Below are positions 1 to 62,805 of a DNA stretch of 64,000 nt, piece after piece. The position numbers and the translations under genes were made by a program. How positions within the stretch are numbered: position 1 is the stretch's first letter; every line of letters starts with the position of its first letter. Source of the stretch: Verrucomicrobiota bacterium (GTDB lineage Bacteria; Verrucomicrobiota; Verrucomicrobiia; Limisphaerales; JAHDYP01); contig JBJOII010000003.1 in NCBI GenBank assembly GCA_046047235.1, forward strand, positions 8,970 to 72,969, given 5' to 3'. A model generated the notes under the pieces. The model had not been told where the DNA came from. It saw nothing but the letters and a program-made list of their open reading frames with translations, and did no database searches.

Positions 1-72
1 AAACACCAGGGCCGACGCTTCAGGCTAACCGACGTCCACGGCAAACTCGTAAAGGAACTGTTCAACAGTTAG
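1..72 (+). CDS. 3' end of an upstream gene (last 23 codons: KHQGRRFRLTDVHGKLVKELFNS*)
   Basis: Frame 1 is open from base 1 to TAG at 70-72 and shows the C-ending codon bias seen in plus-strand genes here. It is too short for a functional call. Confidence 0.3.
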   Translation, partial: KHQGRRFRLTDVHGKLVKELFNS

Positions 73-75
73 CCC

Positions 76-103
76 TTGGCTGTTGGCTGTTGGCTGTTGG
101 CTG
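76..103 (+). repeat. TTGGCTG x4 heptamer tandem repeat
   Basis: Four perfect consecutive 7-mers read directly from the sequence, starting 4 nt after the TAG at 70-72. Confidence 0.9.
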
Positions 104-313
104 TGAACAGCGAACGCACCGCAGGCGCTGGGATTCAAAGGTCAAAGGTCAGGAGTCGAGAGTCAGCGCGCCCCTTGTTCCAAAACGTCCGCCGTAGAAC
201 CACAGGCGTAGGGAGCTCACCCTTTGGGGTGCCTCTACCCCCCCAAGCCCAGTGTCTCGGAGCTTCAGTGTTTCTGTGTTTCAGAACAACCTGCGCCGCG
301 GGAGCGGCGCAAT

Positions 314-9874: not shown

Positions 9875-9890
9875 AGCCCCAGCCGGCCGA

Positions 9891-9934
9891 CTGCGCGCCG
9901 CACTTGGGACGTTCTACGTCCCACCGGCGCGCAG
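9891..9934. repeat. Compound hairpin 17 nt after the trpB stop (10-bp outer stem plus 7-bp inner stem)
   Basis: CTGCGCGCCG...CGGCGCGCAG encloses TGGGACG-ttcta-CGTCCCA. The inner part recurs at 33422-33442. No U-tract follows, so it is not a classical intrinsic terminator. Confidence 0.8.
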
Positions 9935-9978
9935 TGGCCAGTGTTTCGGATCAAGCAGTGCCGCGCCAGCGGCACAAC

Positions 9979-10001
9979 TGGATTTCGCGCAGCGAAATCC
10001 A
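9979..10001. repeat. GCA-triloop hairpin module (TGGATTTCGC-GCA-GCGAAATCCA)
   Basis: Perfect 10-bp stem, identical to the copy at 17421-17443. Confidence 0.9.
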
Positions 10002-10140
10002 ACAGAAGCCCGCTCCAGTGGGCGACAGACCGCGGCCGCAAGGACGCGGTACCGACAGGGACCTGCCCTGAGCCTGTCGAAGGGCCGAATCGCCGGGAGG
10101 CGATCACTGAATCCACCCTCTGCGCGCAGCGCCTGTCCCC

Positions 10141-10238
10141 CAGCTCCCAGCTCCTAGCTCCCAGCTCCCAGCTCCCGTTCCGCGCACGCGGCACTACCCT
10201 CTGCGCTTTGCGCTTCGCGCGCAGCGCGAATTCCTCAG
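10141..10238 (+). repeat. Phased heptamer tract of 14 units (CAGCTCC x5 ... CCCTCTG CGCTTTG CGCTTCG CGCGCAG CGCGAAT TCCTCAG)
   Basis: 98 nt parse into 14 heptamers with no indel. The last unit contains the ppk2 stop codon (10235-10237). Confidence 0.85.
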
Positions 10239-11719
10239 AGCCGCTTCTCCAACGCCTCAACAAAGGCCTTCAACACTTCCAGCCGCGCCACTTGCTTGTC
10301 GTTCCCCGAGACCAGCGACCACGGCGCATCCTGCGTACTGGTATGCGTCACCATGTCATGCACCGCCTGCTCGTATTGCGGCCAACGCTTCCGGTTGCGG
10401 TAGTCTTCCTCAGTGATTTTGTAGTTCTTGTGCCGGACCTGCTCGCGCTTCCGAAAACGCTCCAGCTGTTCCTCCCGGCTGATGTGTAGCCAGAACTTCA
10501 GAACCACCGTGCCGTGCTCCGCCAACTGGCGCTCAAACTCGTTGATCTCATGATAGGCACGCTGCCATTCCGGCCGCGTCGCATATCCCTCCACCCGCTC
10601 CACCAACACCCGGCCATACCACGACCGATCAAACACCGTGACCATCCCCGACCGCGGCAACTGCCGCCAAAACCGCCAGAGATAATGCTGCGCCCGTTCC
10701 TCCTCGCTCGGAGCAGCCACCGGTACCACCCGGAATAACCGCGCGTCCACCGCCTCAGTCACCCGACGAATCGCACTGCCCTTGCCCGCCGCATCCCACC
10801 CCTCAAACACCAGAATGCTCGATATACCCCGCCGATACGCCTCCCAGGTCAACCGGCTCAGCTTCTTCTGCAATCCAGGCAACTGCTTGCCATAAGCCTT
10901 CTTCCCCAGCTGCAACGTCAAATCCACCTTGTCCAGCACCGTGGCCTTGGCCCGACGCGGCTTCGCGTCCTCACGCGTTGCCTTGGGCTTCTCCACATCC
11001 TTCTTCGCCGCCAACGCCAACCGCCCCTCCATGGCATCCACCACGACCTGCCCCGCCGCCAAATCCCGATACCGGTCCTGCCCGGCTTCAATCAATCGCC
11101 ACGCCGCAAACCCCGTGTCGGTCTGGCGAATCACACTCTCCGCCGCAGCCACAAAACACTCATAACTCCGGCCATGCTTGTCCCCGCTCCGCACCATCAC
11201 CAAACCATCCTCCGGACTCTTTCCCCGGGCCTTCAACCGACGACGCTGGTCCTTCTCCGACAAGTGAAACCATAGCTTAATGATCAACGCCCCGTCCTCC
11301 ACCAGCATCCGCTCAAACGCGGCAACCCGTGCCAACCCCATCTCCAAACGCGCCCGACTCAGCTTCCCCCGCGCACGCCCCGCCAGTAAATCCTGATACC
11401 ACGCCCCATAATAAATGCCCACCCGACCCCGCGCCGGAAGACTCCGCCAAAATCGCCAGTAATACGGACGCTCCTCCTCCTCTCCCGATGGGTTCCAAAA
11501 GGTGTGCGTATCAATCCCCCGAGGATCCAGCCACTCGTTGAGATGATGCACCACCTCGCCCTTGTCCGCCCCGTCCATCCCCGCCACAATAATCACCACC
11601 GGAACCCCGGCCCGCCGCAAAGCCTGCTGCGCTTCCAGTAACCGCAGCCTCAGCTCAGGCAGTTGCTCCGCATACTCCTCCTTGGAGAGAGTCCGTCCCA
11701 GTTCGGCAGCTTCGAACAT
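10235..11719 (-). CDS. ppk2: Two-domain polyphosphate kinase 2 (polyphosphate:AMP phosphotransferase type)
   Basis: Two tandem PPK2 modules, each with a P-loop-like motif (GMDGADKGE, GWDAAGKGS) and a WRFWRxLP motif. ATG at 11719 (MFEAAELG) is preferred over the longer track start at 11755. Confidence 0.88.
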   Translation of the reverse strand: MFEAAELGRTLSKEEYAEQLPELRLRLLEAQQALRRAGVPVVIIVAGMDGADKGEVVHHLNEWLDPRGIDTHTFWNPSGEEEERPYYWRFWRSLPARGRVGIYYGAWYQDLLAGRARGKLSRARLEMGLARVAAFERMLVEDGALIIKLWFHLSEKDQRRRLKARGKSPEDGLVMVRSGDKHGRSYECFVAAAESVIRQTDTGFAAWRLIEAGQDRYRDLAAGQVVVDAMEGRLALAAKKDVEKPKATREDAKPRRAKATVLDKVDLTLQLGKKAYGKQLPGLQKKLSRLTWEAYRRGISSILVFEGWDAAGKGSAIRRVTEAVDARLFRVVPVAAPSEEERAQHYLWRFWRQLPRSGMVTVFDRSWYGRVLVERVEGYATRPEWQRAYHEINEFERQLAEHGTVVLKFWLHISREEQLERFRKREQVRHKNYKITEEDYRNRKRWPQYEQAVHDMVTHTSTQDAPWSLVSGNDKQVARLEVLKAFVEALEKRL

Positions 11720-11850
11720 GGGACGGAACTTACGCCCGCCAACCAAAGCCGCCAAGCCGCTTTGTCACCCCTCGCGCAGCGCCCGTCCCCCCCGACCCTG
11801 CCGGAGTTTCGGAGTTTCAGTGTTTCGGAACACCGGTAAACCGGCAGCCC

Positions 11851-11899
11851 TCTCCCCTCTCCTCTCTCCTCTCTCCCTGCGGCCCGTCCTCGGGCCGCA
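11851..11899 (+). repeat. Polypyrimidine tract plus hairpin module (TGCGGCCCG-tcct-CGGGCCGCA)
   Basis: TCTCCCCTCTCCTCTCTCCTCTCTCCC followed by a perfect 9-bp stem. The same architecture occurs at 24453, 30679 and 62755. Confidence 0.85.
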
Positions 11900-11903
11900 A
11901 GAG

Positions 11904-11959
11904 CCCTCAGCCCTCAGCCCTCAGCCCTCAGCGCTATGCGCTTGCCGCACAGCGCTTGG
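11904..11959 (+). repeat. Phased heptamer tract of 8 units (CCCTCAG x4, CGCTATG, CGCTTGC, CGCACAG, CGCTTGG)
   Basis: Read directly from the sequence. It lies in the divergent ppk2/protease promoter region. Confidence 0.85.
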
Positions 11960-11996
11960 CCCAGAATGCCCCTTGACCCATCCCACACCTGCATCC

Positions 11997-13460
11997 ATGT
12001 TCCCAGCCGTGTTCAAACGGTCCCTAGCCTTCCTGACCCTGCTCCTCTGCACGGTAGCCAGCCCCGCCGCAGAACTGGAGCGCTCAGTCGTCCAAATCAT
12101 TACCTTCAGCCAGGAACCCCAGTGGGATACGCCCTGGCGCCAAACCGGAGTCCGCCGCGGCAGCGGAACCGGATTCCTCATCCAAGGTAAACGCATCCTC
12201 ACCAATGCCCACGTCATCGGCTGGGCCCGCCAAATCCTCATCCGCCGACACCAGGACCCCCAACCCTACCTCGCCCACGTCGTGTTCGCCGGACACGACT
12301 GCGACCTCGCCCTGCTCGAGGTCGAAGACCCCGCCTTCTACGAAGGTCTGGAACCCCTCGAGTTCGGCCCCCTGCCCAAAGTCCAGTCCACTGTCGTCAC
12401 CTGCGGCTACCCCGCCGGAGGTGAACAAGTCTCATTCACCCGCGGCGTAGTCTCCCGAATCGAACTGCAAAATTTCGTCCATATCGGTAACCGCAACTTC
12501 CTCGCCGTCCAAACCGATGCCGCCATCAACCCCGGCAACAGCGGCGGACCCGTGTTCCAGGACGACCGCGTGGTCGGCGTCGCCTTCCAAGGTATCCCCG
12601 GCCTCGAAAACGCCGGCTTCTTCATCCCCCTACCCATCATCGAACACTTCCTCAAAGACGTTGCCGACGGCACCTACGACGGATTCCCCTCAGCCGGCAT
12701 CCGTATCACCGCCCTGCATAATCCCGCCTACCGCCGCTACCTCGGACTGGACCAACCCGGTCTCGGCGCCCGTGTCGACGGACTCCTCCCCATTCCCTCC
12801 ACCCGCAAATTGCTCCAGCCCGACGATGTCCTGCTCCAGGTCGGCGAATTCCCCATCGGCAGCGACGGCTCCGTGCTCTTCGAAGGCAACCGCGTCTTCG
12901 GCGGTGTCGCCTTCCAGCTCGCCCAAAACGGTGAGTCCGTCCCCCTCAAAATCTGGCGCAATGGACAACAGCTCGATATCCAGCTCCCCGTCGAGGTCTA
13001 TGAAGGTGACAGCCTCCTCAGCAACCATTACGACACCCCGCCACGCTACTACGTCCACGCCGGACTCGTCTTTACCCCGCTCAGCCTGGACTACCTCAAA
13101 ACCCAGGGCCGCAACTGGCGCGATAACGCCAATAACGAAATCGTCTACGAAATGTACTACCGACGACAGGAAGCACCGGAAACCGCCCGCACCGAACCCA
13201 TCGTCCTCTCCGCCGTGCTCACCCACCCCGTCAATGTCAACCTGCGCTACGGCGCACGATCCCTCGTCGATACCATCAACGGCGTCCGGATCGACCGGCT
13301 CGAGGACGTCATCAAGGCCTTCAACAACGCCACCAACAGCCACCACGTGCTCGAATTCCTCCCGAACCGCTCACTGGAAACCATCGACCGCCAAGCCGCA
13401 GCCAACGCCCACCAGGAAATCCTGCGCACCTACGCCGTCCCCAACGACCGACGCCTATGA
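11997..13460 (+). CDS. Secreted trypsin-like serine protease (S1C/Deg-like) with a PDZ-like C-terminal region
   Basis: ATG at 11997 gives signal peptide MFPAVFKRSLAFLTLLLCTVASPAA. The catalytic triad is intact: LTNAHVI (His), DCDLALLEV (Asp), NPGNSGGPV (Ser). Confidence 0.85.
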   Translation: MFPAVFKRSLAFLTLLLCTVASPAAELERSVVQIITFSQEPQWDTPWRQTGVRRGSGTGFLIQGKRILTNAHVIGWARQILIRRHQDPQPYLAHVVFAGHDCDLALLEVEDPAFYEGLEPLEFGPLPKVQSTVVTCGYPAGGEQVSFTRGVVSRIELQNFVHIGNRNFLAVQTDAAINPGNSGGPVFQDDRVVGVAFQGIPGLENAGFFIPLPIIEHFLKDVADGTYDGFPSAGIRITALHNPAYRRYLGLDQPGLGARVDGLLPIPSTRKLLQPDDVLLQVGEFPIGSDGSVLFEGNRVFGGVAFQLAQNGESVPLKIWRNGQQLDIQLPVEVYEGDSLLSNHYDTPPRYYVHAGLVFTPLSLDYLKTQGRNWRDNANNEIVYEMYYRRQEAPETARTEPIVLSAVLTHPVNVNLRYGARSLVDTINGVRIDRLEDVIKAFNNATNSHHVLEFLPNRSLETIDRQAAANAHQEILRTYAVPNDRRL

Positions 13461-17123: not shown

Positions 17124-17420
17124 CCCCCGCCCCAAAGGCGCATCGTAGCGGGTAGCCGGGACCCAATCCATGCAGCATACCCTTGCGGGTGGGGACGACC
17201 TGTCCCGCGACCGCGGAATCCTCCAAATCGTTGCACCCACCTCGGCATCCAAATCGAAATCGCTATCGGGATCGAAATCGGAATAGCCAGGCGAGCGTAG
17301 AGAGAAAAGAGTTACCCCCGCCCCAAAGGCGCGTCGTCCACCAAATCACTGCACCCACCTCGCACCGGCAGGGACGACCCGCCCCCACGCTTCGGAATTT
17401 CTGTGTTTCAGCGCAGCCAC

Positions 17421-17443
17421 TGGATTTCGCGCAGCGAAATCCA
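17421..17443. repeat. GCA-triloop hairpin module (TGGATTTCGC-GCA-GCGAAATCCA)
   Basis: Identical to 9979-10001. It sits 5 nt from the dus stop (17449-17451) and shares the 3' flank CAT(A/C)GACCT with the copy at 314. Confidence 0.9.
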
Positions 17444-24407: not shown

Positions 24408-24452
24408 AAGCCTGAGGTCAAAGTCCGGCGGTCAGCCACGCAAATCCCCCAG

Positions 24453-24495
24453 CTCCTCTCTCCCCCCTCCCTGCGGTCCACCACGCGGACCGCAG
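24453..24495 (+). repeat. Polypyrimidine tract plus hairpin module (CTGCGGTCC-accacgc-GGACCGCAG)
   Basis: CTCCTCTCTCCCCCCTCCC followed by a perfect 9-bp stem. Confidence 0.85.
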
Positions 24496-24524
24496 CACCC
24501 CTCTGCGCTTGCCGCTTTGCCTCC

Positions 24525-24673
24525 CCATTCATGTATGGCTTGTGTTCATGCGGATACCCCTACGAACCGCGTTCGCCCCACGGTATAACCGCATGAATAG
24601 TCCACACATGAATAAACCCATCCCGGCACCGACTCCGGCCATTCATGTATGGCTGCGTTCATGCGGACACCCC
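24525..24673 (+). repeat. Pair of direct repeats of about 35 bp (24525-24560 and 24639-24673) flanking a 54-nt imperfect hairpin (24545-24598)
   Basis: CCATTCATGTATGGCT(TGTG/GCG)TTCATGCGGA(T/C)ACCCC occurs twice. TTCATGCGG/CCGCATGAA, ATACC/GGTAT and CGAAC/GTTCG form nested stems. Confidence 0.75.
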
Positions 24674-24745
24674 ACAGGACCCCTGCCGGTGTTTCCGTGT
24701 TTCACTGTTTCAGAGCATGAACCAGAGCACGCCTCAGCGCACAGC

Positions 24746-24882
24746 GCTGCTGCCCCATCGAAATCGCTATCGGGATCGCTATCGGGATCGAATGCTGAAG
24801 TTCCCAGTCGCAGGACGCAGGATACCGGATAGCGAAGATCGGACATCGCCCCGAGCGACCGAAGACCCGAGGCGCGCTTCCC
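24746..24882 (+). repeat. 137-bp dispersed repeat, copy A
   Basis: Aligns without gaps to 51569-51705 with 5 mismatches by hand count. It contains (ATCGCTATCGGG)x2. A short related piece lies at about 17240-17290. Confidence 0.9.
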
Positions 24883-24972
24883 GCTTGCCGCTTTGCCCTC
24901 AGCCCTCCGCCCTCCGCCCTCCGCCCTCAGCCCTCCGCCCTCAGCGCTATGCGCCTACCGCTTGCCGCCCCT
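24875..24972 (+). repeat. Phased heptamer tract of 14 units (CGCTTCC CGCTTGC CGCTTTG, then CCCTCAG/CCCTCCG x7, then CGCTATG CGCCTAC CGCTTGC CGCCCCT)
   Basis: 98 nt in perfect 7-bp register. The tract ends on the stop codon (24971-24973) of the REC-HD-GYP gene. Confidence 0.85.
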
Positions 24973-26257
24973 AACAATACACCACCAACGACTGCGCAAT
25001 CGGATTCAACCGGTTGTGGTTGCGCAGCTTGTCGATATAGGCCTCCGACAACTGTTGTCCATCGGGTATCAGCAAAATGCCATTCGCGGTGTAGATACCC
25101 TTGGCCAGAATCATTCCCGGCCGCAACTCCGACAACATCACCTCGCGTTGCTTCCGCGGCACCATAGCCTGCGGCAGGCTACGTATGAACGCCCGCACCG
25201 CCTCAGGATCAAACTTCGTCCCGCTCTGGTGCTGCAGCATTTCCAAGGTATCGGAATGCTTCTCGTTACTCTCGGAATACGCCACCGCCACCGCCAGCAA
25301 CCGCCCCAGCCACGGAATCGATTCGCCCCGCAACTGGTCCGGATAGCCTGTTCCGTCAAAACGCTCATGGTGCGCCCGGATGGTCTCACCCACCCCGGCC
25401 AACCCATGCACAAAACCCGCCAGCTCCTGCCCCAGAATCGGATGATGCTGGATCACCTTCAGTTCCGCGTCATTCAATTCGCTCGGAGTGTGCTGCCAAC
25501 GCCGGATCAGTTGCCTCGGCGCACCCACCAAACCAATGTCGTGCAGCCACGCCGCCACTTCCAAACTCTGCTGCTCGTCCGCCGAAAGCTCCAGGGAATG
25601 ACCCACCGCCCGGCATAACTCATAAACCCGCCGCGCCTGACTCCCCAACGTCGGGTAAAAGGTCTCCATCGTCCGCAAACACAACTCAATCGAATGCTGC
25701 AGGTTCTTCTGCAGCGCCGTGTTCAGCCCCTCCAACTGACGGTTCTGGTCCGCCACACGACTCACCTGCTCCTCCAAGGCCTTGTTCAGCTTGGAAAGCT
25801 TCTCGTTCATCGCAATCGCCGTCGCCTGCAATACCTTGTTCTTGCAAATCAGGTCATATCGCTGCACCGCGTTGCGCACCGTCGCCAGCAACTCCTCCCT
25901 CAACCACGGCTTGATCACAAAACGGTAGATCTCACCCTTGTTGATCGCGTCAATCACGGTGTTCAAACTCAACACCGCCGTCACCAAAATGCGCGTCGCG
26001 TCAGGCTGCGTCTCCTTCACCTGGCTCAGGAATTCCAAGCCCGTCAGGTTTGGCATCTGATGGTCCGTAATGATGACCGAAAACGCCTGCTCCTTGATTA
26101 ATTCCAAGGCCTGCAACGGATCACTGCACGCCACCACGTCATAACCCTCACGGGTCAACGCCTCCCGCAACGCCACCAACACAATCTCCTCGTCGTCTAC
26201 CACCAGCAAACGATGAGGCGAGAGTAACTCGGGAGATGATGCTTCTACGAATTTCAT
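24971..26257 (-). CDS. Response regulator with an HD-GYP output domain (candidate c-di-GMP phosphodiesterase)
   Basis: Receiver motifs LLVVDDE, IITDHQMPNLTG and KPW, a coiled-coil linker, and the HD..HHERFDGTGYP motif. Confidence 0.88.
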   Translation of the reverse strand: MKFVEASSPELLSPHRLLVVDDEEIVLVALREALTREGYDVVACSDPLQALELIKEQAFSVIITDHQMPNLTGLEFLSQVKETQPDATRILVTAVLSLNTVIDAINKGEIYRFVIKPWLREELLATVRNAVQRYDLICKNKVLQATAIAMNEKLSKLNKALEEQVSRVADQNRQLEGLNTALQKNLQHSIELCLRTMETFYPTLGSQARRVYELCRAVGHSLELSADEQQSLEVAAWLHDIGLVGAPRQLIRRWQHTPSELNDAELKVIQHHPILGQELAGFVHGLAGVGETIRAHHERFDGTGYPDQLRGESIPWLGRLLAVAVAYSESNEKHSDTLEMLQHQSGTKFDPEAVRAFIRSLPQAMVPRKQREVMLSELRPGMILAKGIYTANGILLIPDGQQLSEAYIDKLRNHNRLNPIAQSLVVYC

Positions 26258-30678: not shown

Positions 30679-30742
30679 ACCCTCTCCTCTCTTCCCTCTC
30701 CCCTCTCATTGCGTCGCGCAACCGCGCGACGCAATCCCTCAG
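30679..30742 (+). repeat. Polypyrimidine tract plus 12-bp hairpin (ATTGCGTCGCGC-aacc-GCGCGACGCAAT) plus one CCCTCAG unit
   Basis: Read directly from the sequence. The terminal CCCTCAG (30736-30742) contains the aguA stop codon (30739-30741). Confidence 0.85.
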
Positions 30743-31800
30743 ACCGGCTGCTGCTGGGTCAGGCAATGCAGCGAACCAAAGCCCAGCACCAAATCCACCG
30801 CATGAATACCCACCACCGGCCGGTCACGGAATAGTTCTGACAAAATCCCCAGGGCAACACGGTCCATCGGGTCATTGAAAGTCGGAACCAGCACGGCCGC
30901 ATTGCCGATGTAGAAATTCGCATAGCTAGCCGGCAACCTGTAGTCGTCAAACATCAGGGGCGACGGCATCGGCAACGCTACAACTTCAGGCCGCGATCCG
31001 TCCTCCAGACGCAGGTCCTGGATCCGGTCCCAGTTCTCAGCCAGCGGACGGTAGTTGATGTCCTTGCGGTTCTTCTCCTGGATCAACACCAGCGTCCTCG
31101 GGTTCACAAAACGACAGATGTCATCAATATGCCCATGCGTATCGTCACCCACCGGTCCGTTCCGCAGCCAAAGCACATTCTTCACCCCAAGGTAGGTCTT
31201 CACGGTGTCGTTGAACTGCTCACGCGTCATGCCCGGATTGCGCACCTGCACCTCAGGATCCAGATAACACTCCTCAGTGGTAAGCAACGTCCCCTTGCCG
31301 TTCACCTCAATGCCACCCCCCTCCACCACAAAAGGACGACCCTCCCATTGCGCATCGTAAAGCGGCTTGCCCAACAACCGCGCCGCCGTCTCCGGCACCT
31401 GCCGGTCCTTCTGCCAGTTCGGATACTTGGCCCAGGCATTGAAATGACAATGCACAATCGCCGTCTCGCTCTTCCGATTGCGCCGCCGCCGCACAAAAAT
31501 CGGCCCGCTGTCACGCGTCCACCCACGGTTCGTAGGATGCATGATGAATTCCACCTGCCCCAGATCAGCGTTCGCCACACCCAAATAACCCCGGGCCTGC
31601 TCAGCCGCCTTCTCATCATTCACCAGAATCCGCACCTTCTCGCCCACCGCAAGCTTCCGTACCATCTCCCCATAAACCCAACGGATGGTGTCCACCTTGC
31701 CCGGCCAGTCGGTCCGGTTGTGCGGCCACCCCAGCCAGGTCGCCTCATGGCGCTCCCACTCCGCGGGCATGCTGTAGCCGTCAGCCGCCGGTGTCGTCAT
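30739..31800 (-). CDS. aguA: Agmatine deiminase
   Basis: ATG at 31800 (MTTPAADGYSMPAEWERHEATWLGWPH) and the catalytic-Cys tail GSLHCLTQQQP. Confidence 0.88.
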   Translation of the reverse strand: MTTPAADGYSMPAEWERHEATWLGWPHNRTDWPGKVDTIRWVYGEMVRKLAVGEKVRILVNDEKAAEQARGYLGVANADLGQVEFIMHPTNRGWTRDSGPIFVRRRRNRKSETAIVHCHFNAWAKYPNWQKDRQVPETAARLLGKPLYDAQWEGRPFVVEGGGIEVNGKGTLLTTEECYLDPEVQVRNPGMTREQFNDTVKTYLGVKNVLWLRNGPVGDDTHGHIDDICRFVNPRTLVLIQEKNRKDINYRPLAENWDRIQDLRLEDGSRPEVVALPMPSPLMFDDYRLPASYANFYIGNAAVLVPTFNDPMDRVALGILSELFRDRPVVGIHAVDLVLGFGSLHCLTQQQPV

Positions 31801-31990
31801 CGTTCCACTCGCTCGTTTCGATCGCATCGCGGCCGGAGCATAACGCCAACCCCTTCCTTGTCCATCCCCGCCACGACCCCAGCACACCCACTTCACACCC
31901 CACCACAACGCCTCCCCCACCAGCTTGCAGGGAAAATTGATTGCAAGTTTTGGGGCGACCGTATTTTAGTCGCCCATTGCTGCTCATATC

Positions 31991-33199
31991 ATGGCGAAAA
32001 AGACCAAAAAAAATCATCGTTGTCGGGAAGACCTCTCCGACATGCCCGAATGGATGAAGGAAAAGGAATGCCCTCATAAGGCAAAATACATGTCCGGCAA
32101 GCGGATCATGCCCAAGAACCTCACGGGCAAGGAAAAGCTGGCCGACATCGTGGAAAATACCTTCCTCGCCTATAACTCCGCCCGCCTGCGCGAAGGCTGC
32201 CGCCTCTTCACCGAGAAAATGCTCGAGGACGATGTCACCATCGGCATGAGCCTCTCCGGAGCGCTCACCCCCGCCGGCCTCGGCTGCTCCTGCATCATCC
32301 CCCTCATCAAGGCCGGCTTCGTCGACTGGATCGTCGCCACAGGCGCCATCCTCTACCATGACCTGCACTTCGCCCTGAATTACCCGGTCCACGCCGGCAG
32401 CCCGCAGTTCGACGATGTCGACCTGCGCAACAACGACCTGGTCCGTATCTATGACGTCGTCATCCCCTACAGCGACGGACTCATGGCCACCGACGACCTC
32501 CTGCGCGAGATCCTCACCAAACCCGAGTTCCAGAAGGAAATGGGCACCACCGAACTCCATTACCTCATCGGTAAATACGCCGCCGAATGGGAACGGAAGA
32601 ACGGCCTGAAAGACGTCTCAGTCATGGCCGCCGCCTACCGCGCCGGAGTGCCCTGCTTCACCTCCTCACCCGGCGACTCCACCATCGGCATGAATGTCGC
32701 CGGCGTCGAACTCCGCGGCAATAAACTGCGCGTAAATCCCTCCATCGACGTCAATGAAAGCACCAGCTACGTGCTCGCAGCCAAACGCAGCGGCGGCAAA
32801 AGCGCCGTGGTGCTCTGGGGCGGCGGTAGCCCGAAAAACTTCATGCTCCAAACCGAACCCCAAATCCAGGAAGTCCTCCGGATCAAGGAGTTCGGCCAGG
32901 ACTACTTCCTGCAGGTCACCGATGCCCGCCCCGATACCGGCGGCCTCTCCGGTGCCACCCCCTCCGAAGCCGTCAGCTGGGGCAAAGTCGATCCGGAACG
33001 CCTGCCCGATGCCGTGGTCTGCTACACCGATACCACCATCGCCATGCCTATCCTGACCAGCTACGCTCTCGCCCGCCACAAGCGACGCAAACTGCGCCGC
33101 CTCTTCGACCAACGACACGACACCATGAACCTCCTCGCCAAGGAGTACTTCAAACATAACAAGGTCGATATGCTCGACGGCTCAAAGCCCAAGTTCTAA
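31991..33199 (+). CDS. Deoxyhypusine synthase-like protein (candidate homospermidine synthase)
   Basis: DHS-family motifs [23 protein letters not shown] and WGGGSPKNF. The basic/Cys-containing N-terminal 33 codons are uncertain; an alternative ATG is at 32090. Confidence 0.85.
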
Positions 33200-33218
33200 G
33201 CAAACCCAATCCCCTCTC

Positions 33219-33255
33219 AGGGCGCGTGTTCCCCACGGAATACGCGCCCTTTTTC
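33219..33255 (+). terminator. Intrinsic terminator of the DHS-like gene
   Basis: AGGGCGCGT GTTCC-ccac-GGAAT ACGCGCCCT forms a 14-bp stem (one G-U pair) with a tetraloop, followed by TTTTC. It starts 20 nt after the TAA at 33197-33199. Confidence 0.8.
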
Positions 33256-33269
33256 ATCGTACCCCCCCA

Positions 33270-33388
33270 CGCCTACCACTTCGCGCTTCGCCCTCAGCCC
33301 TCAGCCCTCAGCCCTCAGCCCTCAGCCCTCAGCCCTCAGCCCTCTGCGCTTCCCGCTTCCCGCTTCCCGCTCTGCGCTCAGCGCCCCG
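33270..33388 (+). repeat. Phased heptamer tract of 17 units (..CGCTTCG, CCCTCAG x7, CCCTCTG, CGCTTCC x3, CGCTCTG, CGCTCAG, CGCCCCG)
   Basis: 119 nt in perfect 7-bp register. The CCCTCAG x7 block is at 33291-33339. Confidence 0.88.
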
Positions 33389-33421
33389 TGTTTCAGAGTT
33401 TCGGAACAGCTACGCGCCGCG

Positions 33422-33442
33422 CTTGGGACGTTCTACGTCCCA
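33422..33442. repeat. Hairpin module CTTGGGACG-ttcta-CGTCCCA
   Basis: The 21 nt are identical to 9903-9923, and the preceding GCGCGCCGC(A/G) is also shared. Confidence 0.88.
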
Positions 33443-33455
33443 GCAGCGCCACAGA

Positions 33456-33474
33456 AATTCGCCGCAGGCGAATT
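33456..33474. repeat. GCA-triloop hairpin (AATTCGCC-GCA-GGCGAATT) abutting the ClC stop codon
   Basis: 8-bp perfect stem. The adjoining 13 nt GCGAATTCCTCAG (33468-33480) are identical to 10226-10238. Confidence 0.85.
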
Positions 33475-33476
33475 CC

Positions 33477-35261
33477 TCAGTCTTCCTGCGCAGCTGCCAC
33501 CTGCGTCTGTGCCCTCAGCAGGTCGTGCAGGGTGACAATCCCAATCGCCTTCCCCCCCGGACGATCCACCAGAACCACCAGCCCCGTAGAGGAATCAATC
33601 AACAACCGCTGCAGACGCCGAATGGAATCCTTGGGCAGACAGGTCGGCACCTGCTCCAGCTGGGGTTCCCGCGATTCCCGCGTGGCCTTCTCCACCTCCT
33701 CACGCGCCAGCACCCCTTTCAGCTCGCGATCGATCACCACCGGAAACCTCTCGTAAGGATGATCGCTCAGGGTCGCCTTGATCGCCGCCGGATCGAGATC
33801 CTTCACCAGCGCGGGCTTGAAATTGGCAATCGCAGATACCGGCAGCTGCTGCCATTCCGTCAGGTCACGCGGCGGCCGCACATGCTCGACCTCGTGTCCG
33901 TCCTGCTCAAGTAAGGCCTCATAAAAGTTGTGCTTGTTGAAACGACGACTGATCCACGAGCTGACCAGCGCACCCAGCATCAGGGCCGGCACGAGCGTAA
34001 ACTCATGGGTCATCTCGAACACTATCAGGATGCCGGTCACCGGAGCCCAAACCACCGCCCCCAAGCACGCACTCATCCCCACCACCACCAACGTCAGCAC
34101 ATCCGCCGCAGGCAACTGAAACTCCACACCAAATACCTTCCCCGCCTCAGTCAATCCCCCCGCTATCACCAAACCCGTCATCCCCCCAAAAAACAACGTC
34201 GGCGAAAAAATACCCCCGCAACCGCCCGTCCCGTAACAAGCCACGGTCGCAATGAATTTGGCCAGCAACAACAGCAAGGCCATCTTCCACATCAACCCGC
34301 CCCCCAACGCCGCAGTCAGATCATCATAACCCAGACCAAAGACACCCAACCGCCCCTTCCCATCCTCAGCAATCATCGCGGTCGTCACATACACCGCAAT
34401 GCCCAGCATCCAGGTAATCAACGCTCCCACCGCCGGAAAGGCCCACGAGTTGCCAAAACGCCAGCCACGCGACCGCTTCCGCAACCGCAGGCAGCTGCGC
34501 TGGAATTGCACACCCACAAGACTCGCAATCAACGCCACCAAGGGCGTCAGGGCATACCCCTGATACGACGGGCCAGACAGGTTCTGCGGCAGCTGGAACG
34601 CCGGATCCGGGCCAATGATTCCGTGCACCATGAACGCGCCCAGCACCGAGGCAAAAAGAATGCTGCCCAAAAAGCGGCTGTTCAGATCCCCAATGATCTC
34701 CTCCATTACAAAAGTGATCGAGGCCAGCGGCGTGTTGAATGCCGCCGCCAAACCGGAAGCCGCACCCGAAGCCGCGCTCTCCCGCCGCTTCTGCTTGGGT
34801 TCACCAAACAAGGCCGCAAGGTTCGACCCCAGCGCTCCCGCCAACTGCACGCTCGGACCTTCACGCCCCAAACTGGCCCCTCCGCCAATGCTCAGCACGC
34901 CCGCCAGAAACTTCACCCAAACCACCCTGAACGGCACATGCCCAAACTCCTTCCAGAACGCCAGCTTCAGCTGCGGAATACCACTGCCCGCCGCCTCAGG
35001 ACAGAACCGGCGCAGCAACCAACCCGAGACCAATGAGGTCGCCACAATAATCGCCAGACTGGTCGTGGCAAACTCGCGAAAGGAAACGGTCTCGGAGTAG
35101 GCAAAGAAATGGATGCCCCACTCAAACAGCAGGTTCATCGCGATCTGGAACACCACCGTCACGAGTCCAGCCGCCAAACCGTAGATGCATACCAGCAGGA
35201 TCGCCCGCGCCCCCTTCGGAAGCCGGTGGATCTGTTGACGCAACAGGTTCAGCAAAACCAT
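33477..35261 (-). CDS. ClC-family chloride channel/antiporter with C-terminal CBS pair
   Basis: Selectivity motifs GSGIPQ, GREGP and GGIFSPTLFFG, followed by two CBS-like repeats. Confidence 0.9.
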   Translation of the reverse strand: MVLLNLLRQQIHRLPKGARAILLVCIYGLAAGLVTVVFQIAMNLLFEWGIHFFAYSETVSFREFATTSLAIIVATSLVSGWLLRRFCPEAAGSGIPQLKLAFWKEFGHVPFRVVWVKFLAGVLSIGGGASLGREGPSVQLAGALGSNLAALFGEPKQKRRESAASGAASGLAAAFNTPLASITFVMEEIIGDLNSRFLGSILFASVLGAFMVHGIIGPDPAFQLPQNLSGPSYQGYALTPLVALIASLVGVQFQRSCLRLRKRSRGWRFGNSWAFPAVGALITWMLGIAVYVTTAMIAEDGKGRLGVFGLGYDDLTAALGGGLMWKMALLLLLAKFIATVACYGTGGCGGIFSPTLFFGGMTGLVIAGGLTEAGKVFGVEFQLPAADVLTLVVVGMSACLGAVVWAPVTGILIVFEMTHEFTLVPALMLGALVSSWISRRFNKHNFYEALLEQDGHEVEHVRPPRDLTEWQQLPVSAIANFKPALVKDLDPAAIKATLSDHPYERFPVVIDRELKGVLAREEVEKATRESREPQLEQVPTCLPKDSIRRLQRLLIDSSTGLVVLVDRPGGKAIGIVTLHDLLRAQTQVAAAQED

Positions 35262-49394: not shown

Positions 49395-51485
49395 ATGGAC
49401 GTCAACCCGCCCCATGCTATGTTTTTAGCCATGTTGTATCGCTCGACCCCGGCCCGCACACTGCCTGCACTTGCCGTACTCATCACAGGCATCTCCCTCC
49501 AGGCCCAACCGCTCCCCACCCCATCCCCCATCCCCCTCGCCCCTCCACCATCCTTCCCCACCATCACCCGAACCCCGCTGCCCGACTCCCCCGCCCTGCG
49601 TCCGCAAGGCCCGACCCTCTACTCAATCGGTGACCCCACCGGTGAAGAACAACTCTACCTCGAATACATCAACCGCGCCCGCGCCAATCCACCCGCCGAA
49701 GGCGTGCTGCTCGCCAATACCACCGATCCCGAAGTCACCTCCGCCTACGATTTCTTCGGCGTCAATCTCGTCACCATGATGAACGAGTTCGCCGCCATCA
49801 GTCCCGCACCCCCTCTCTCCTTCAATGCCCAACTGATCGAAGCCGCCCGCCTGCACAGCGGTGACATGTTCACCAACGTCTTCCAGGGACACTACACCTG
49901 GAACCCCGCCACCGGTGCCATGGACTCCTCCAAAAGCCCCGGCTACCGCATGGACCTCGTCGGCTATAACTGGAACTCCTACGGCGAAAATGTGTTCAGC
50001 TACGCCAAATCCGCCTGGCACGGCCACGCCGGTTTCGAAGTCGACTGGGGCTTCGGCCCCGCCGGCATGCAAGGACCCCCGCGCGGACACCGCGAAAGCA
50101 TCCATAACCCCAATTTCAGGGAAGTCGGAATCGGCATCGTCTCCGGTAGCAACGAGGTCAACTCCAACCCGCCCCGTGACCCGGTCGGCCCCAGCCTCGT
50201 CACCCAGGACTTCGGCACCCGCGCCAACCTGAACCCATTCATCACCGGCGTCGCCTACTACGACCTCGACGAAGACGGCGCCTACGACGCCAATGAAGGC
50301 ATCGGCGGAGCCACCATCGAAGTCGCCGGTTCCCAATACCACGCCATCACCGCCAACTCCGGCGGTTACTCCGTCCCCGTCCCGCCAAACCAGTCCCACT
50401 CCGTCACGTTCAGCGGTACAGGCTTCACCACCGACAACCGCACAGTCCCCGTCAACACCAGCAACGTGAAGGTGGATTACGCCCTGCCCTATCCCGAACC
50501 CACGCTGTCCGGCCCCGCCCAACTCGGTGTAGGCGCCACCGGCACCTACACGTTCAACGCCGTGGGAGGCGCCACCAACTACCGCTGGTCCAAGGCCCTG
50601 CTCGCTCCCTATGACGCCGTCGAAGGCGCCGAAAACGGCTCCGCCCACCTCGGCGTGGCCATCTCCCCCGGCTACCCTCTGATCACTTCCACGGTCAAAG
50701 CCTCCGGAACTTCATCGTTCCACCTCGCAACCCCCGAAGCCGAACCCCAAGCCTTGGTACTCAACACCACAATCCAACCACAAACCGGTGCCGAACTGGT
50801 CTTCGCCAGCCGCCTCGGCTGGGCAACAACCGGCCAGATCGCCCACGCTCAAGTCTGGGACGACGCCCAACAAGCCTGGGTCGATGTCTGGACCCGCACC
50901 GGCACCGACACAGCCGGCCAAACCTCGTTCCAAACCATCACCGCCTCCCTCGCTGACTTCGTCGGCGAAGTCATCTACATACGCTTCTATTATTCAGTCT
51001 CAGGGGGCTACTACCCCCAAACCGATAACGGCGTCGGCTGGTACATCGACGACATCCGCTTCAACAATTGCTCCAGCCTCGAATCCTCCGTCACTAAGGA
51101 AATTGCCTCACCTTCCATCAGCTTCACCGGCGATGCCGAAGGCACCTACCTGCTCCAGGCCCAGCCACAAATCTCCGGTCGCTGGTTCCCCATGGGCCCC
51201 GTCACTCTCGTCACCGTCAGCACCGCAGTCATCCCACCTTCCGTGTCCATCGGCACCATCCAGCTCACCAACCCCAACACCGCCCGCATCGAGTGCCTCG
51301 TCGAAAATGGCCCGCCCTCCAGTATCCAACTCCAATACTCCAACGACAACGGCACCACCTGGACCACAGACCCCTCCCTCCAGGCCCAGGAAATCACCCC
51401 CGGCTCCCACTACGCCTTCGAACTCACCCCGCCCATCGGCACACCGACCTCCGGCGCCCAACTCTACCGCATCCGCATCGAGTAG
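49395..51485 (+). CDS. Secreted CAP/SCP (PR-1-like) domain protein with C-terminal beta-sandwich-type repeats
   Basis: Signal-like N-terminus. CAP-type region (YLEYINRARANP ... AARLHSGDM ... GENVFSY), then a carboxypeptidase-regulatory-like segment (GATIEVAGSQYHAITANSGGYSVPVP) and further Ig-like sequence. Confidence 0.72.
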   Translation: MDVNPPHAMFLAMLYRSTPARTLPALAVLITGISLQAQPLPTPSPIPLAPPPSFPTITRTPLPDSPALRPQGPTLYSIGDPTGEEQLYLEYINRARANPPAEGVLLANTTDPEVTSAYDFFGVNLVTMMNEFAAISPAPPLSFNAQLIEAARLHSGDMFTNVFQGHYTWNPATGAMDSSKSPGYRMDLVGYNWNSYGENVFSYAKSAWHGHAGFEVDWGFGPAGMQGPPRGHRESIHNPNFREVGIGIVSGSNEVNSNPPRDPVGPSLVTQDFGTRANLNPFITGVAYYDLDEDGAYDANEGIGGATIEVAGSQYHAITANSGGYSVPVPPNQSHSVTFSGTGFTTDNRTVPVNTSNVKVDYALPYPEPTLSGPAQLGVGATGTYTFNAVGGATNYRWSKALLAPYDAVEGAENGSAHLGVAISPGYPLITSTVKASGTSSFHLATPEAEPQALVLNTTIQPQTGAELVFASRLGWATTGQIAHAQVWDDAQQAWVDVWTRTGTDTAGQTSFQTITASLADFVGEVIYIRFYYSVSGGYYPQTDNGVGWYIDDIRFNNCSSLESSVTKEIASPSISFTGDAEGTYLLQAQPQISGRWFPMGPVTLVTVSTAVIPPSVSIGTIQLTNPNTARIECLVENGPPSSIQLQYSNDNGTTWTTDPSLQAQEITPGSHYAFELTPPIGTPTSGAQLYRIRIE

Positions 51486-51568
51486 TCCCCGCTACCCGCT
51501 TCGCCCAGTAGCCAGAAGAGCGGAGAGAGCATAGCGGACACGCCGTCGCTCCGCCCTTTGCGCTTGCC

Positions 51569-51705
51569 GCTGCTGCCCCATCGAAATCGCGATCGGGATC
51601 GCTATCGGGATCGAATGCTGAAGTTCCCAGTCGCAGGAAGCAGGATACCGGATATCGAAGATCGGACATCGCCCCGAGCGACCGAAGACCCGGGGCGCGC
51701 TTACC
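51569..51705 (+). repeat. 137-bp dispersed repeat, copy B
   Basis: Gap-free alignment to 24746-24882 with 5 mismatches by hand count, in the same orientation. Confidence 0.9.
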
Positions 51706-51843
51706 CCTTACCGCTTACCCCTTACCGCTTACCCCTTACCGCTTACCCCTTACCGCTTGCCCTCCGCCCTCAGCCCTCAGCGCTCTGCGCTCTGCGCTTT
51801 CCGCTTTCCGCTTGCCGCTTACCGCTCTGCGCTCTGCGCTCAG
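51701..51843 (+). repeat. Phased heptamer tract of 20 units drifting through related 7-mers
   Basis: (TTACCCC TTACCGC)x4, TTGCCCT, CCGCCCT, CAGCCCT, CAGCGCT, CTGCGCT x2, TTCCGCT x2, TGCCGCT, TACCGCT, CTGCGCT x2. The tract ends on the phnY stop codon (51840-51842). Confidence 0.9.
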
Positions 51844-53285
51844 GGCCACGGCAACGAATACGTCTTCACGTTCGTGAAGAATTTCATGGCCTCACTCACG
51901 CCCTCTTTCACTCCGTTGCCAGAATCCTTGATGCCTCCGAACGGCGACGTCTCGATCCGGTAACCCGGCTGTTCCCAGATGTTCACGGTCCCCACACGCA
52001 ACCCTTCAATGAACGCCTGCATCCGGCGGAAATCATTCGTGCAGACTCCCGACGACAAACCGAACGGCGTGCTATTGGAAATGCGCATGACTTCCTCGTC
52101 GTTGTCCGGCACACGCACGATGGGAACGATCGGCCCGAAAGTCTCCTCCATGACCAGTTCACTTTGATGCGGCACGAAGTCGACCACGATCGGCGGCAGC
52201 AGGGCGCCCTTGCGACCCGGATCATAGAGGACCTTGGCCCCCTGCTCTGCGGCCAGATAGACCCGCTTCTCGAACAACTCCGCCGCCCTGGCATGAATGA
52301 CACAACCCAGCTCAGTCGCCGGATCCATCGGATCCCCAAACCGGATCGCCTTCGCCTTGGTCAGCACGAGCGGAACGAATCGATCCGCCACGCTTTCCTG
52401 TACCAGAATGCGCTTCACCGCAGTGCATCGCTGACCCGAATTCCCCGTTGCACCCGCCACCGCAATGGTCGCCGCCTTCTCCAGGTCCGCATCGTCCAGA
52501 TCGTTCAGGATGATCAGGGGATCGTTGCCTCCCAGCTCCAAGGCCTGCCGCTTGTACACCGCCTTCGACGCAATCATCTTCCCCACCGGCACACCACCCG
52601 TGAAGGTGATGATGTCGATGTTGGGATTGGTGATCATTTCATCGCCAATGTCCTTCGGCCAACCGGTAACAACTTGGAACATCTCCGGAGGCAGACCGGC
52701 TTCATACAGGAGATCCGCCAGTGAAAGGGCCGTCAACGGAGTCAGCTCGGTCGGCTTGCACACCATGCAGTTGTTGGTGGCAATCGATGGCGCCACCTTG
52801 TGACTCACCATGTTCAACGGATGGTTGAACGGGGTGATGGCTGAGATGGCCCGCACCGGTTCGCGCTTGGTGTAAATCTTCCGCTGCTTCCCGTTGTGCG
52901 TCAGGTCGCAGGAAAAAATCTGGCCGTCGTCCTGCAGCGTCTGCGCCGCAGCAAAGGTATACACATCCTGCGCCCGCTTGGTCTCGTAAATGGCATGCTG
53001 CCAGCAAATGCCCAGTTCCAAGACCAGCCACTTGGCCAGAAACTCGCGACGCTCCCCGATCAGCTCACCCGTGCGCTTCAGGATCCGGCTGCGCTCGTAA
53101 CGCGTCAGCTTCGACTCATACGCCGCCGCTATCTCAAACGCACGACGCGCATGCTCCGCCGTCCCCGCCGGAACGGTCCCCACAACCTCGTCGGTATACG
53201 GATACCGCACCTCAATCCGTTCCCCGGTAAAGACCTTCTCCCCACCAATCCGCATCCCTTCGTTCCGGATCTCAATACGACTCAT
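51840..53285 (-). CDS. phnY: Aldehyde dehydrogenase, probably phosphonoacetaldehyde dehydrogenase
   Basis: ALDH catalytic motifs ELGGNDP and GQRCTAV. A GAGGAG Shine-Dalgarno lies upstream. The gene sits directly downstream of a PhnA-type hydrolase. Confidence 0.8.
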
Positions 53286-62656: not shown

Positions 62657-62754
62657 ATCACGACAGGACAAACCCCAATGCCAACAGCTAATTGCAAACC
62701 ACCCGGTATCCCATCTCCCATCTACCTCCGCCCTCGGCGCTCTGCCCCCCACCG

Positions 62755-62805
62755 TCTCCCCTCTCCTCTCTACCCTCTTCCTGCATCGCGGACGCCCGCG
62801 ATGCA
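62755..62805 (+). repeat. Polypyrimidine tract plus hairpin module (TGCATCGCGG-acgc-CCGCGATGCA)
   Basis: TCTCCCCTCTCCTCTCTACCCTCTTCC followed by a perfect 10-bp stem, in the porin/secreted-protein divergent spacer. Confidence 0.85.

Follow-up and report, generated by a model that had tools for sequence, protein, structure and literature searches.

Downstream of an aldehyde dehydrogenase gene, in a 64-kb stretch of DNA from a Verrucomicrobiota lineage (hereafter the window, meaning the whole of the stretch that was analysed), a run of seven-base units begins within the stop codon itself, and related runs recur at other loci of the same stretch. What kind of element are these tracts, what gives them their common polarity, and why do they press against stop codons? 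A first-pass annotation, drawn from the letters of the sequence, had described them as register-perfect and strand-locked satellites.

The tracts are genuine heptamer repeats

Read directly, positions 51701-51840 fall into 20 consecutive heptamers, which is the parse that the first-pass annotation had given, and Tandem Repeats Finder places an array at 51698-51841. This array, which we call IG51, spans 51698-51842 with its G-rich form on the minus strand and holds 20-21 units. Beginning with the unit that contains the TGA of the upstream gene, the minus strand reads CTGAGCG, CAGAGCG twice, GTAAGCG, GCAAGCG, GAAAGCG twice, CAGAGCG twice, CTGAGGG twice and CGGAGGG; past a 1-nt shift of the core there follow GCAAGCG and then the pair GTAAGGG GTAAGCG four times over. 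The assertion that the tract parses without any indel stands only if three substitutions are allowed at the junction, as the register of the core shifts by 1 nt at 51757-51760; the wide descriptions of the arrays by Tandem Repeats Finder likewise contain 5-9% indels.

The seven-base phase itself was upheld when the window was examined with Tandem Repeats Finder and by autocorrelation. The former returned further period-7 arrays at 76-104, 10139-10176, 10202-10220, 11902-11932, 24875-24942 and 33290-33371, and the autocorrelation scan of the window found seven tracts at period 7, five at period 14 and none at periods 4-6, 8-13 or 15. The phased pattern CSCT-N3, taken six times in succession, has 27 matches in the window, all on the plus strand, and none in 100 dinucleotide-preserving shuffles, and runs of at least five identical trinucleotides in phase occur 25 times at period 7, compared with 0-9 times at the other periods from 5 to 12. 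Given the period scans and the comparison of pattern matches with shuffles, the heptamer tracts are real seven-base tandem repeats, far above chance; Tandem Repeats Finder, the period scan and the shuffles agree in finding head-to-tail units longer than chance would give, as is characteristic of the class of bacterial repeats known as LSSR.

Three other loci parsed as had been claimed, each with its G-rich form on the minus strand: IG33 (33270-33388; 17 units, with a core of eight CTGAGGG), IG24 (24875-24972; 14 units) and IG11 (11904-11959; eight units, namely four CTGAGGG, CATAGCG, GCAAGCG and, beyond these, two further diverged units). IG11 and IG24 have the arrangement CCCTCAG-CGCTATG-CGC in common. 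The region 10141-10238, which had been read as 14 units, proved instead to hold two short arrays, which together we call IG10 (10139-10238, minus strand): (AGCTGGG)x5 at 10139-10176 (5.4 copies, CCCAGCT on the plus strand) and some 3-5 units of AGCG or AGGG type at 10202-10238, the two parts lying 63 nt (9x7) apart with about 25 nt of non-periodic sequence between them. At the start of the window (76-168) lie two tracts with more G than C on the plus strand, (TTGGCTG)x4 at 76-104, whose unit has three G and one C, and a drifting tract at 134-168, missing from the earlier inventory, that reads TCAAAGG twice, TCAGGAG, TCGAGAG and TCAG. A polypurine heptamer-like tract of GAGAGGG type (CCCTCTC on the plus strand) is found on the minus strand at 30680-30712, behind a 12-bp hairpin and downstream of an agmatine deiminase-like gene (30739-31920, minus strand); it has relatives at 11848-11880, 24442-24474 and 62752-62784.

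On the G-rich strand the units follow the consensus S-N-R-A-G-S-G (C-S-C-T-Y-N-S on the plus strand). Sixty units, drawn from five runs in the window and one in a relative, amount to 14 types, among them CTGAGGG, CAGAGCG, GTAAGCG, GCAAGCG, CGGAGGG, GGAAGCG, GTAAGGG, GAAAGCG and CGAAGCG; the 14 types recur between loci and in the relative, and the earlier description of one related family at several loci is thereby borne out. Positions 4, 5 and 7 of the unit (A, G and G) are invariant in all 60, and positions 1-3 and 6 differ in 12-27 of 54 comparisons between adjacent units. The invariant A-G-G core looks like constraint, in a test that is partly circular because the runs were picked by their AGSG core, though they cover essentially the whole of the Tandem Repeats Finder arrays. 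Heptamer tracts lacking the AGSG core are also present in the window (AGCTGGG, TTGGCTG, TCAAAGG and GAGAGGG).

Several familiar types of bacterial repeat could be set aside. As the first-pass annotation had recognised, the tracts are not CRISPR arrays: the 7-mers are contiguous and without spacers, and there are no repeats of ~24-48 nt with unique spacers of similar length. Extragenic palindromes of the REP/BIME type were rejected on the grounds that the heptamer units are not self-complementary, and contingency-locus SSRs (phase variation) on the grounds that five of the six tract sites lie in 3' flanks, with IG11 alone upstream of genes. No Rfam family reached its gathering score in the window, and no tRNA gene was found there.

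Most arrays lie close behind stop codons

All ten flanking genes tested carry Pfam domains, which in three of them reach the last residues, so that the tracts do lie outside convincing coding sequence, as had been proposed, and the plus-strand ORFs that run through them are antisense to Pfam-supported genes. A position in the gaps between such genes, for a unit whose length is not a multiple of three, is a further property of LSSR. Four of the five main tracts are located in long convergent gaps (9875-10234, 24408-24970, 33200-33476 and 51486-51839), and the remaining one, IG11, in the divergent gap 11756-11997. A tract of this heptamer family is present in four of six long convergent gaps and in one of eight other long gaps (Fisher p ~0.09).

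The 354-nt gap that holds IG51 (51486-51839) is bounded on one side by the aldehyde dehydrogenase gene (51840-53285, minus strand), a phosphonoacetaldehyde dehydrogenase by the names of its homologues, and on the other by a convergent gene with CAP and CarboxypepD_reg domains (49395-51485, plus strand). The C-terminus of the dehydrogenase, ...TYSLPWP*, is conserved in relatives, and its TGA (51840-51842) falls inside the first repeat unit, CTGAGCG. IG24 begins directly after the TAG (24971-24973) of an HD-domain response regulator gene (24971-26257, minus strand), and the TGA of a PPK2 gene (10235-11755, minus strand) is followed about 15 nt on by the 10202-10238 array of IG10. IG33 starts 88 nt past the stop of a CLC channel gene (33477-35261, minus strand), from which it is separated by two hairpins and an 8-mer tract; a deoxyhypusine synthase gene (31991-33199, plus strand) forms the convergent side of that gap. 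Three of the four convergent-gap tracts thus start 0-15 nt past the stop of the gene that has the G-rich strand as its sense strand. The TTGGCTG tract at 76-104 begins 4 nt past the TAG (70-72, plus strand) of an open frame that runs off the start of the window, a putative gene judged by its open frame and its C-rich third positions only. Wherever a tract adjoins a stop codon in the window, its G-rich strand is also the sense strand. A distance of 37 nt separates the end of IG11 from the downstream ATG (11997) of a DegP-like protease gene, on whose non-coding strand the G residues of the array lie. The interval of 0-50 bp past the stop that is described for G-rich heptamers elsewhere (Rehm et al., 2015) therefore includes IG51, IG24 (both at 0 nt), IG10 and the 76-104 tract, and leaves out IG33, at 88 nt, and IG11, upstream of its ATG.

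Polarity of the arrays is that of the window

According to the first-pass annotation, all copies are C-rich on the given strand, and this irrespective of how the flanking genes are oriented. The former statement is contradicted by (TTGGCTG)x4 at 76-104 and by the tract at 134-168, and the latter is misleading, as the tracts in the four convergent gaps abut or lie near a minus-strand gene. Nor does strand lock survive as a property of the repeat. The window has a G+C content of 62% and is C-rich on the plus strand throughout its 64 kb, and each of its 2-kb bins has a GC skew in the range -0.17 to -0.44. At third codon positions the skew is -0.54 in plus-strand genes and, on the sense strand, +0.48 in minus-strand genes; it follows the DNA strand in both, which indicates a replication-type asymmetry and not an effect of gene orientation. 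Outside the tracts, the intergenic 7-mers of the window are C-rich rather than G-rich by 3:1, and against such a background five C-rich tracts out of five (p ~0.24 by composition alone) do not amount to an independent strand lock. The uniform polarity of the arrays is the polarity of the window, that is, of its extreme replication-type GC skew and its majority of minus-strand genes, with no separate strand-locking mechanism.

Array polarity is also confounded with the orientation of the abutting gene. The sole tracts that adjoin a plus-strand ORF, those at 76-168, are G-rich on the plus strand, and these flipped tracts, at one locus and with different units, favour a rule linked to the gene. 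A scan of a genome collection with (CSCTNNN)x6, with one genome per species, gave at least 120 loci; the matches listed, among which the window's own species is absent, come from Nostocales, Planctomycetota, Lentisphaeria, Acidobacteriota, Gemmatimonadota, Bacteroidota, Proteobacteria and others, and phased CSCTNNN arrays are thus widespread. Among the matches listed, polarity is unrelated to skew at the weak-skew loci (42 vs 42), and 15 of the 18 loci with a flank skew of at least 0.06, all in other phyla, follow the local skew. Among the matches listed, the upstream gene has the G-rich strand as its sense strand in 45 cases vs 25, with a median distance from the stop of 14-34 nt, by crude ORF calls; a further count of gene-relative polarity among them, likewise from crude ORF calls, gave 50 vs 34, and both signals are modest.

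Arrays are part of a mosaic of intergenic modules

Next to IG51, on the minus strand, is a non-heptamer module of ~135 nt (51560-51697) that is 96% identical to 24737-24874. It represents the non-repeat part of a 203-nt segment common to IG24 and IG51, in which the arrays themselves differ, and it contains a hexamer tract, ATCGCGATCGGG, at 51586-51613. Neither strand of the module has a significant fold, and a structured RNA was ruled out by the fold z-scores of 0.25 and 1.24 and the lack of an Rfam match. A small minus-strand ORF within it (MSDLRYPVSC...DPDSDPDSDFDG) is unsupported, the two copies differing, by eye, by one synonymous and two non-synonymous changes. The gaps also hold 8-mer tracts of the GTGTTTCA type, hexamer tracts (ATCGCTATCGGG), polypyrimidine CCCTCTC tracts and several hairpins, all of them in one orientation throughout, and separate hairpin modules reside with arrays in the same gaps. 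In one hairpin module a compensatory change is seen, and the module occurs widely in metagenomes; a metagenome scan with the hairpin GGATTTCGCGCAGCGAAATCC recovered 37 contigs, from unrelated and unskewed organisms with almost no tracts. With so many other modules resident in the gaps, the heptamer arrays are one component of an intergenic repeat mosaic.

Unit number varies between assemblies and relatives

The closest named homologues belong to a Limisphaerales MAG (98% aa) and to Verrucomicrobiota. The sequence of the window is also present in the JGI metagenome 3300044681 and in Logan assemblies of SRR29999175, the latter with the tracts only in part, and short-read contigs end inside or just before tracts. 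In the JGI contig of the same organism IG33 is shorter by four CTGAGGG units, exactly 28 nt, and IG24 is longer by one unit, 7 nt, both with identical flanks; IG51 is identical in the two assemblies. The 28-nt and 7-nt differences reflect either slippage polymorphism or assembly collapse, and are whole units either way.

Comparison with relatives extends the series at the dehydrogenase locus. In the Limisphaerales MAG, L164, whose dehydrogenase gene has 92.6% nucleotide identity, 8-9 units of AGCG type start in the stop codon (GTGAGCG), and in a second relative, L166 (84% nucleotide identity in the same gene), ~4-5 units lie directly past a TAG. A tract is therefore found at the same dehydrogenase stop codon in three lineages, with 20, 8-9 and ~4-5 units. 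The interior of the gap is unalignable in these relatives, and its modules are ordered differently. The tract is thus kept at the orthologous stop as the content of the gap changes, from which it follows that position persists over short distances and content turns over fast. In relatives at 78-84% aa there is no comparable array past the stop of the gene orthologous to that at IG24, with at most ~3 imperfect units (L170), and the strong skew is absent. The comparison of unit counts that had been suggested as a means of detecting slippage therefore does yield whole-unit differences, and the variation in unit number between strains and relatives that characterises LSSR is seen here, although the part of it found within one organism could be assembly collapse.

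Relation to described heptamer repeats

In stating that no role had been described for such tracts, the first-pass annotation overlooked an existing literature, though one in which function is still unresolved. The G-rich heptamers GGGAATC of Xanthomonas and GGGGA(C/T)T of Nostoc are strongly intergenic, are found within 0-50 bp past the stop codon, with the coding strand as reference, seldom occur between divergent genes and have no link to a class of genes; they occupy the same intergenic position in close relatives with varying unit number and sequence (Rehm et al., 2015, PMC4692102). The present arrays resemble them in their tandem 7-nt units with a G run, in their intergenic position within 0-50 bp past the stop, in their scarcity in divergent gaps, in keeping that position in close relatives while unit number and sequence vary, and in having no link to a class of genes. 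They differ in that their unit family is SNRAGSG, that over half of their units are of AGCG type without a G3 run, that they drift between several unit types inside one tract, that they show no preference for four units (~4-5 to 21) and that quadruplex motifs are not enriched above the background of the window. Their host, a Verrucomicrobiota lineage with extreme GC skew, is different as well.

In the STRR of Calothrix, Anabaena and Nostoc, tandem heptamers form families scattered through non-coding DNA, and one and the same unit is found at many loci. Among the matches listed in our genome scan, many Nostocales arrays are of CCCTGTT or CCCTATT, with the same CCCT core as the present units. 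The phylum and the units are nevertheless others, and cyanobacterial arrays are usually homogeneous, whereas the present ones drift. Heptanucleotides are the commonest class among long SSRs with units of 5-11 nt, the LSSR (Mrazek, Guo and Shah, 2007), which are summarised as non-coding, as typical of large, GC-rich genomes of non-pathogens and as attributed to polymerase slippage (PMC4679880, PMC4692102). The present arrays are likewise heptanucleotide and non-coding; as summarised in those sources, the work on LSSR is a statistical census, in which abutment on stop codons, drifting unit repertoires and mosaics of modules do not appear. Marine Beggiatoaceae carry abundant intergenic direct repeats of the heptamer TAACTGA, with a patchy phylogenetic distribution and a proposed post-transcriptional role (MacGregor, 2015, PMC4679880). 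Those repeats are AT-rich and occur in 2-6 copies immediately before start codons; in contrast, the present arrays are GC-rich and longer, and lie just downstream of stop codons. The tracts of the window are intergenic heptanucleotide LSSR, a class already described in Xanthomonas, Nostoc and other cyanobacteria, and not a new kind of element.

Origin of the arrays and alternative explanations

We propose, with a probability of about 0.6, that the arrays are slippage-driven heptanucleotide microsatellites, dispersed along with the modules beside them, tolerated where 3' gaps are long and checked by coding sequence, and that their polarity comes from the strand asymmetry of the genome together with the preceding gene. 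Replication slippage or unequal exchange would create the 7-nt units and drive their turnover, and unit types would move between loci along with the neighbouring modules. Long gaps between the 3' ends of two genes are presumably selectively permissive, which would let the arrays persist, and coding sequence would halt their expansion, which would explain why they press against stop codons. If the arrays do have a function, its most plausible site of action would be the G-rich RNA of the 3' untranslated region or the point where the transcription unit ends. A selected role is possible: a core that does not vary, unit types that recur, a tract that persists at one stop codon and the enrichment in convergent gaps would all fit it.

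One such role would be that of G-quadruplex or i-motif elements of the Xanthomonas and Nostoc type, folding as non-template DNA or as 3' UTR RNA and thereby ending transcription, insulating convergent genes or protecting the 3' end of the mRNA. The position of the arrays, 0-50 bp past the stop on the coding strand, matches that in Rehm et al. (PMC4692102), and the (CTGAGGG)n blocks supply exactly four G3 runs at IG11, seven at IG24 and eight at IG33, to which (AGCTGGG)x5 adds, by inspection, five at IG10. A run of three or more G is present in every unit of the CTGAGGG, CGGAGGG and AGCTGGG blocks (IG10, IG11, IG24 and IG33), but in none of the AGCG-type units, which form the majority at IG51, all of the L164 tract and over half of the units overall, and the orthologous tract of L164, the closest relative, has no run of four G3 tracts. 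On the minus strand of the window there are 35 canonical quadruplex motifs, where mononucleotide shuffles predict 41, and the plus strand has none; there is no enrichment of the kind described for the Xanthomonas and Nostoc repeats, and the motifs are a background property of the skew of the window. We have therefore rejected a quadruplex-specific role as the main explanation, given a motif count equal to shuffle expectation and an L164 tract without four G3 tracts, and consider selected quadruplex elements distinctly unlikely. No canonical terminator was found for the minus-strand genes at IG51 and IG24, which might appear to favour a part in ending transcription; the deoxyhypusine synthase gene has one (33219-33250, plus strand), with a 14-bp stem and a T-run, before IG33. 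However, over the 60 kb scanned, terminator-like sites are as frequent as chance predicts, so that missing terminators beside the tracts are uninformative, and the idea that the tracts substitute for intrinsic terminators was dropped. A broader version would have the arrays as selected 3'-end elements, in which the phased AGSG core past the stop is bound by a factor or folds, and so ends or insulates transcription units where canonical terminators are almost lacking; the arrays and the extreme skew might also go back to a single cause, such as atypical replication or repair machinery responsible both for the skewed composition and for slippage in 7-nt steps. This we regard as very doubtful.

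The core could also be read by a protein. Arrays might offer phased sites to a single-strand nucleic-acid-binding or DNA-binding protein, for example of the cold-shock-domain, S1 or KH type, that contacts AGSG every 7 nt; the invariance of A-G-S-G beside three free positions, in 60 units from five loci and a relative, would be in keeping with this, and such binders have been proposed for the Beggiatoaceae TAACTGA repeats. Yet the core test is partly circular, the AGCTGGG, TTGGCTG, TCAAAGG and GAGAGGG tracts of the window do without the core, the number of units at one orthologous site ranges from ~4-5 to 21, and a candidate protein has not been identified; such a binding protein is, in our estimate, highly improbable. 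Better placed, if still unlikely, is the view that the arrays are carried as passengers by a dispersed mosaic element (cf. REP/BIME mosaics and MITEs) that spreads by recombination or transposition and of which the heptamers are the internally unstable part, a view that overlaps in part with slippage. The 135-nt module is repeated at two loci together with the start of the array, at 96% identity; 8-mer, hexamer, hairpin and polypyrimidine modules recur in many gaps in the same orientation, and are recombined differently in L164; and the one hairpin with a compensatory change is widespread in metagenomes. Against such an element, inspection of the module borders by eye showed neither terminal inverted repeats nor target-site duplications, there is no transposase nearby, the arrays of IG33, IG11 and IG10 lack the 135-nt module, and the heptamer unit is not palindromic. 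That the tracts are an artefact of assembly or sequencing, or a coding repeat, is scarcely conceivable. Short-read assemblies are indeed interrupted at the tracts, and assemblies disagree on copy number, but the same tracts are present in independent assemblies (the window, JGI 3300044681 and, in part, Logan SRR29999175) as well as in a related NCBI MAG; coding in a single frame is impossible for a unit of 7 nt, and the plus-strand ORFs through the tracts run antisense to Pfam-supported genes.

Our preferred reading, of slippage-driven microsatellites held in long 3' gaps, places the tracts in a widespread and poorly understood class, that of intergenic G-rich heptamer arrays, which is now extended to the Verrucomicrobiota. 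An apparent strand lock can arise from extreme compositional skew, which calls for caution in surveys of repeats, and the tracts break short-read assemblies of this lineage. The arrays at the dehydrogenase stop codon, of ~4-5, 8-9 and 20 units in three lineages, form with the whole-unit differences inside one organism a natural length series, which could be used to estimate rates of slippage or the effect of an array on the formation of 3' ends.

Repeat modules of the intergenic gaps

An 8-mer tandem module of the GTGTTTCA / GAGTTTCG type is intergenic at 262-291, 11806-11835, 17389-17418, 24691-24720 and 33382-33411, and its orientation is identical in all five copies in the gaps of the window. 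Polypyrimidine tracts of the CCCTCTC type occur four times in the window (11848-11880, 24442-24474, 30680-30712 and 62752-62784), in one shared orientation and with a purine-only minus strand; they are potential mirror repeats of the triplex-forming kind. A hexamer tract, ATCGCTATCGGG / ATCGAA, lies at 17242-17284, 24763-24790 and 51586-51613 and at 9445-9478 of L164, a closely related Limisphaerales MAG; hypothetical translation of its minus strand would yield D-P-D-S-D-F-D-like peptide repeats, but coding is unsupported.

Two more modules of ~30-40 nt each, GGGTTTATTCATGTG..CTATTCA.GCGGTT and GGGTATCCGCATGAAC..GCCATACATGAATGG, map to 24408-24700 of the window and to 9500-9810 of L164. Since both types are repeated inside the gap IG24 (24408-24970) and recur several times in the L164 gap orthologous to IG51 (51486-51839), modules of this kind move between gaps in close relatives.

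Hairpins and transcription termination

The hairpin GGATTTCGC-GCA-GCGAAATCC is present at 9979-9999, 17421-17441 and 313-333, the last copy carrying a compensatory change from C:G to G:C. Given that the exact 21-mer was matched in 37 metagenome contigs (L123-L159), whose G+C and skew are unrelated, and that its stem extensions covary across these contigs, the sequences suggest that it belongs to a widely distributed family of intergenic hairpins. Related hairpins, GGAATTCGCC-TGC-GGCGAATTTC, stand immediately 3' of the stops at 33477 and 10235, which end the minus-strand CLC channel gene and the PPK2 gene. The sole convincing canonical intrinsic terminator in the 60 kb scanned is at 33219-33250 on the plus strand (14-bp stem plus T-run); other terminator-like matches there were no more numerous than in shuffled sequence.

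Heptamers elsewhere and the GC skew of the lineage

The tandem repeat (CCCCATC)x5 at 49519-49553 falls inside a long ORF, 49395-51485, towards its 5' end, and the real start of this gene may be downstream of these units. The CCCTCAG unit, identical to that of the window, forms long arrays at contig ends in an Aurantimonadaceae MAG (L005, 4718-4840) and in metagenome contig L154 (2184-2227); these organisms are unrelated, and the unit sequence is therefore not restricted to the lineage of the window. In a Rhodothermales MAG (L010, JBGCEN010000290.1), (CCCTAAA)n, the plant-type telomere repeat, occupies 5-85, at the very start of the contig, and also lies internally at 2998-3036, which may reflect contamination of the MAG by eukaryotic DNA or the end of a linear replicon.

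Across window positions 1-64000 the GC skew is uniform and extreme (-0.17 to -0.44 in 2-kb bins), reaching ~0.5 at third codon positions whichever way the genes point, and is unusually strong for bacteria. This skew extends to the close relatives L164 and L166 (0.22 and 0.14), whereas strong skew is absent from L167-L170, more distant relatives at 78-84% amino acid identity (0 to 0.12). Strong GC skew appears to be specific to this lineage.
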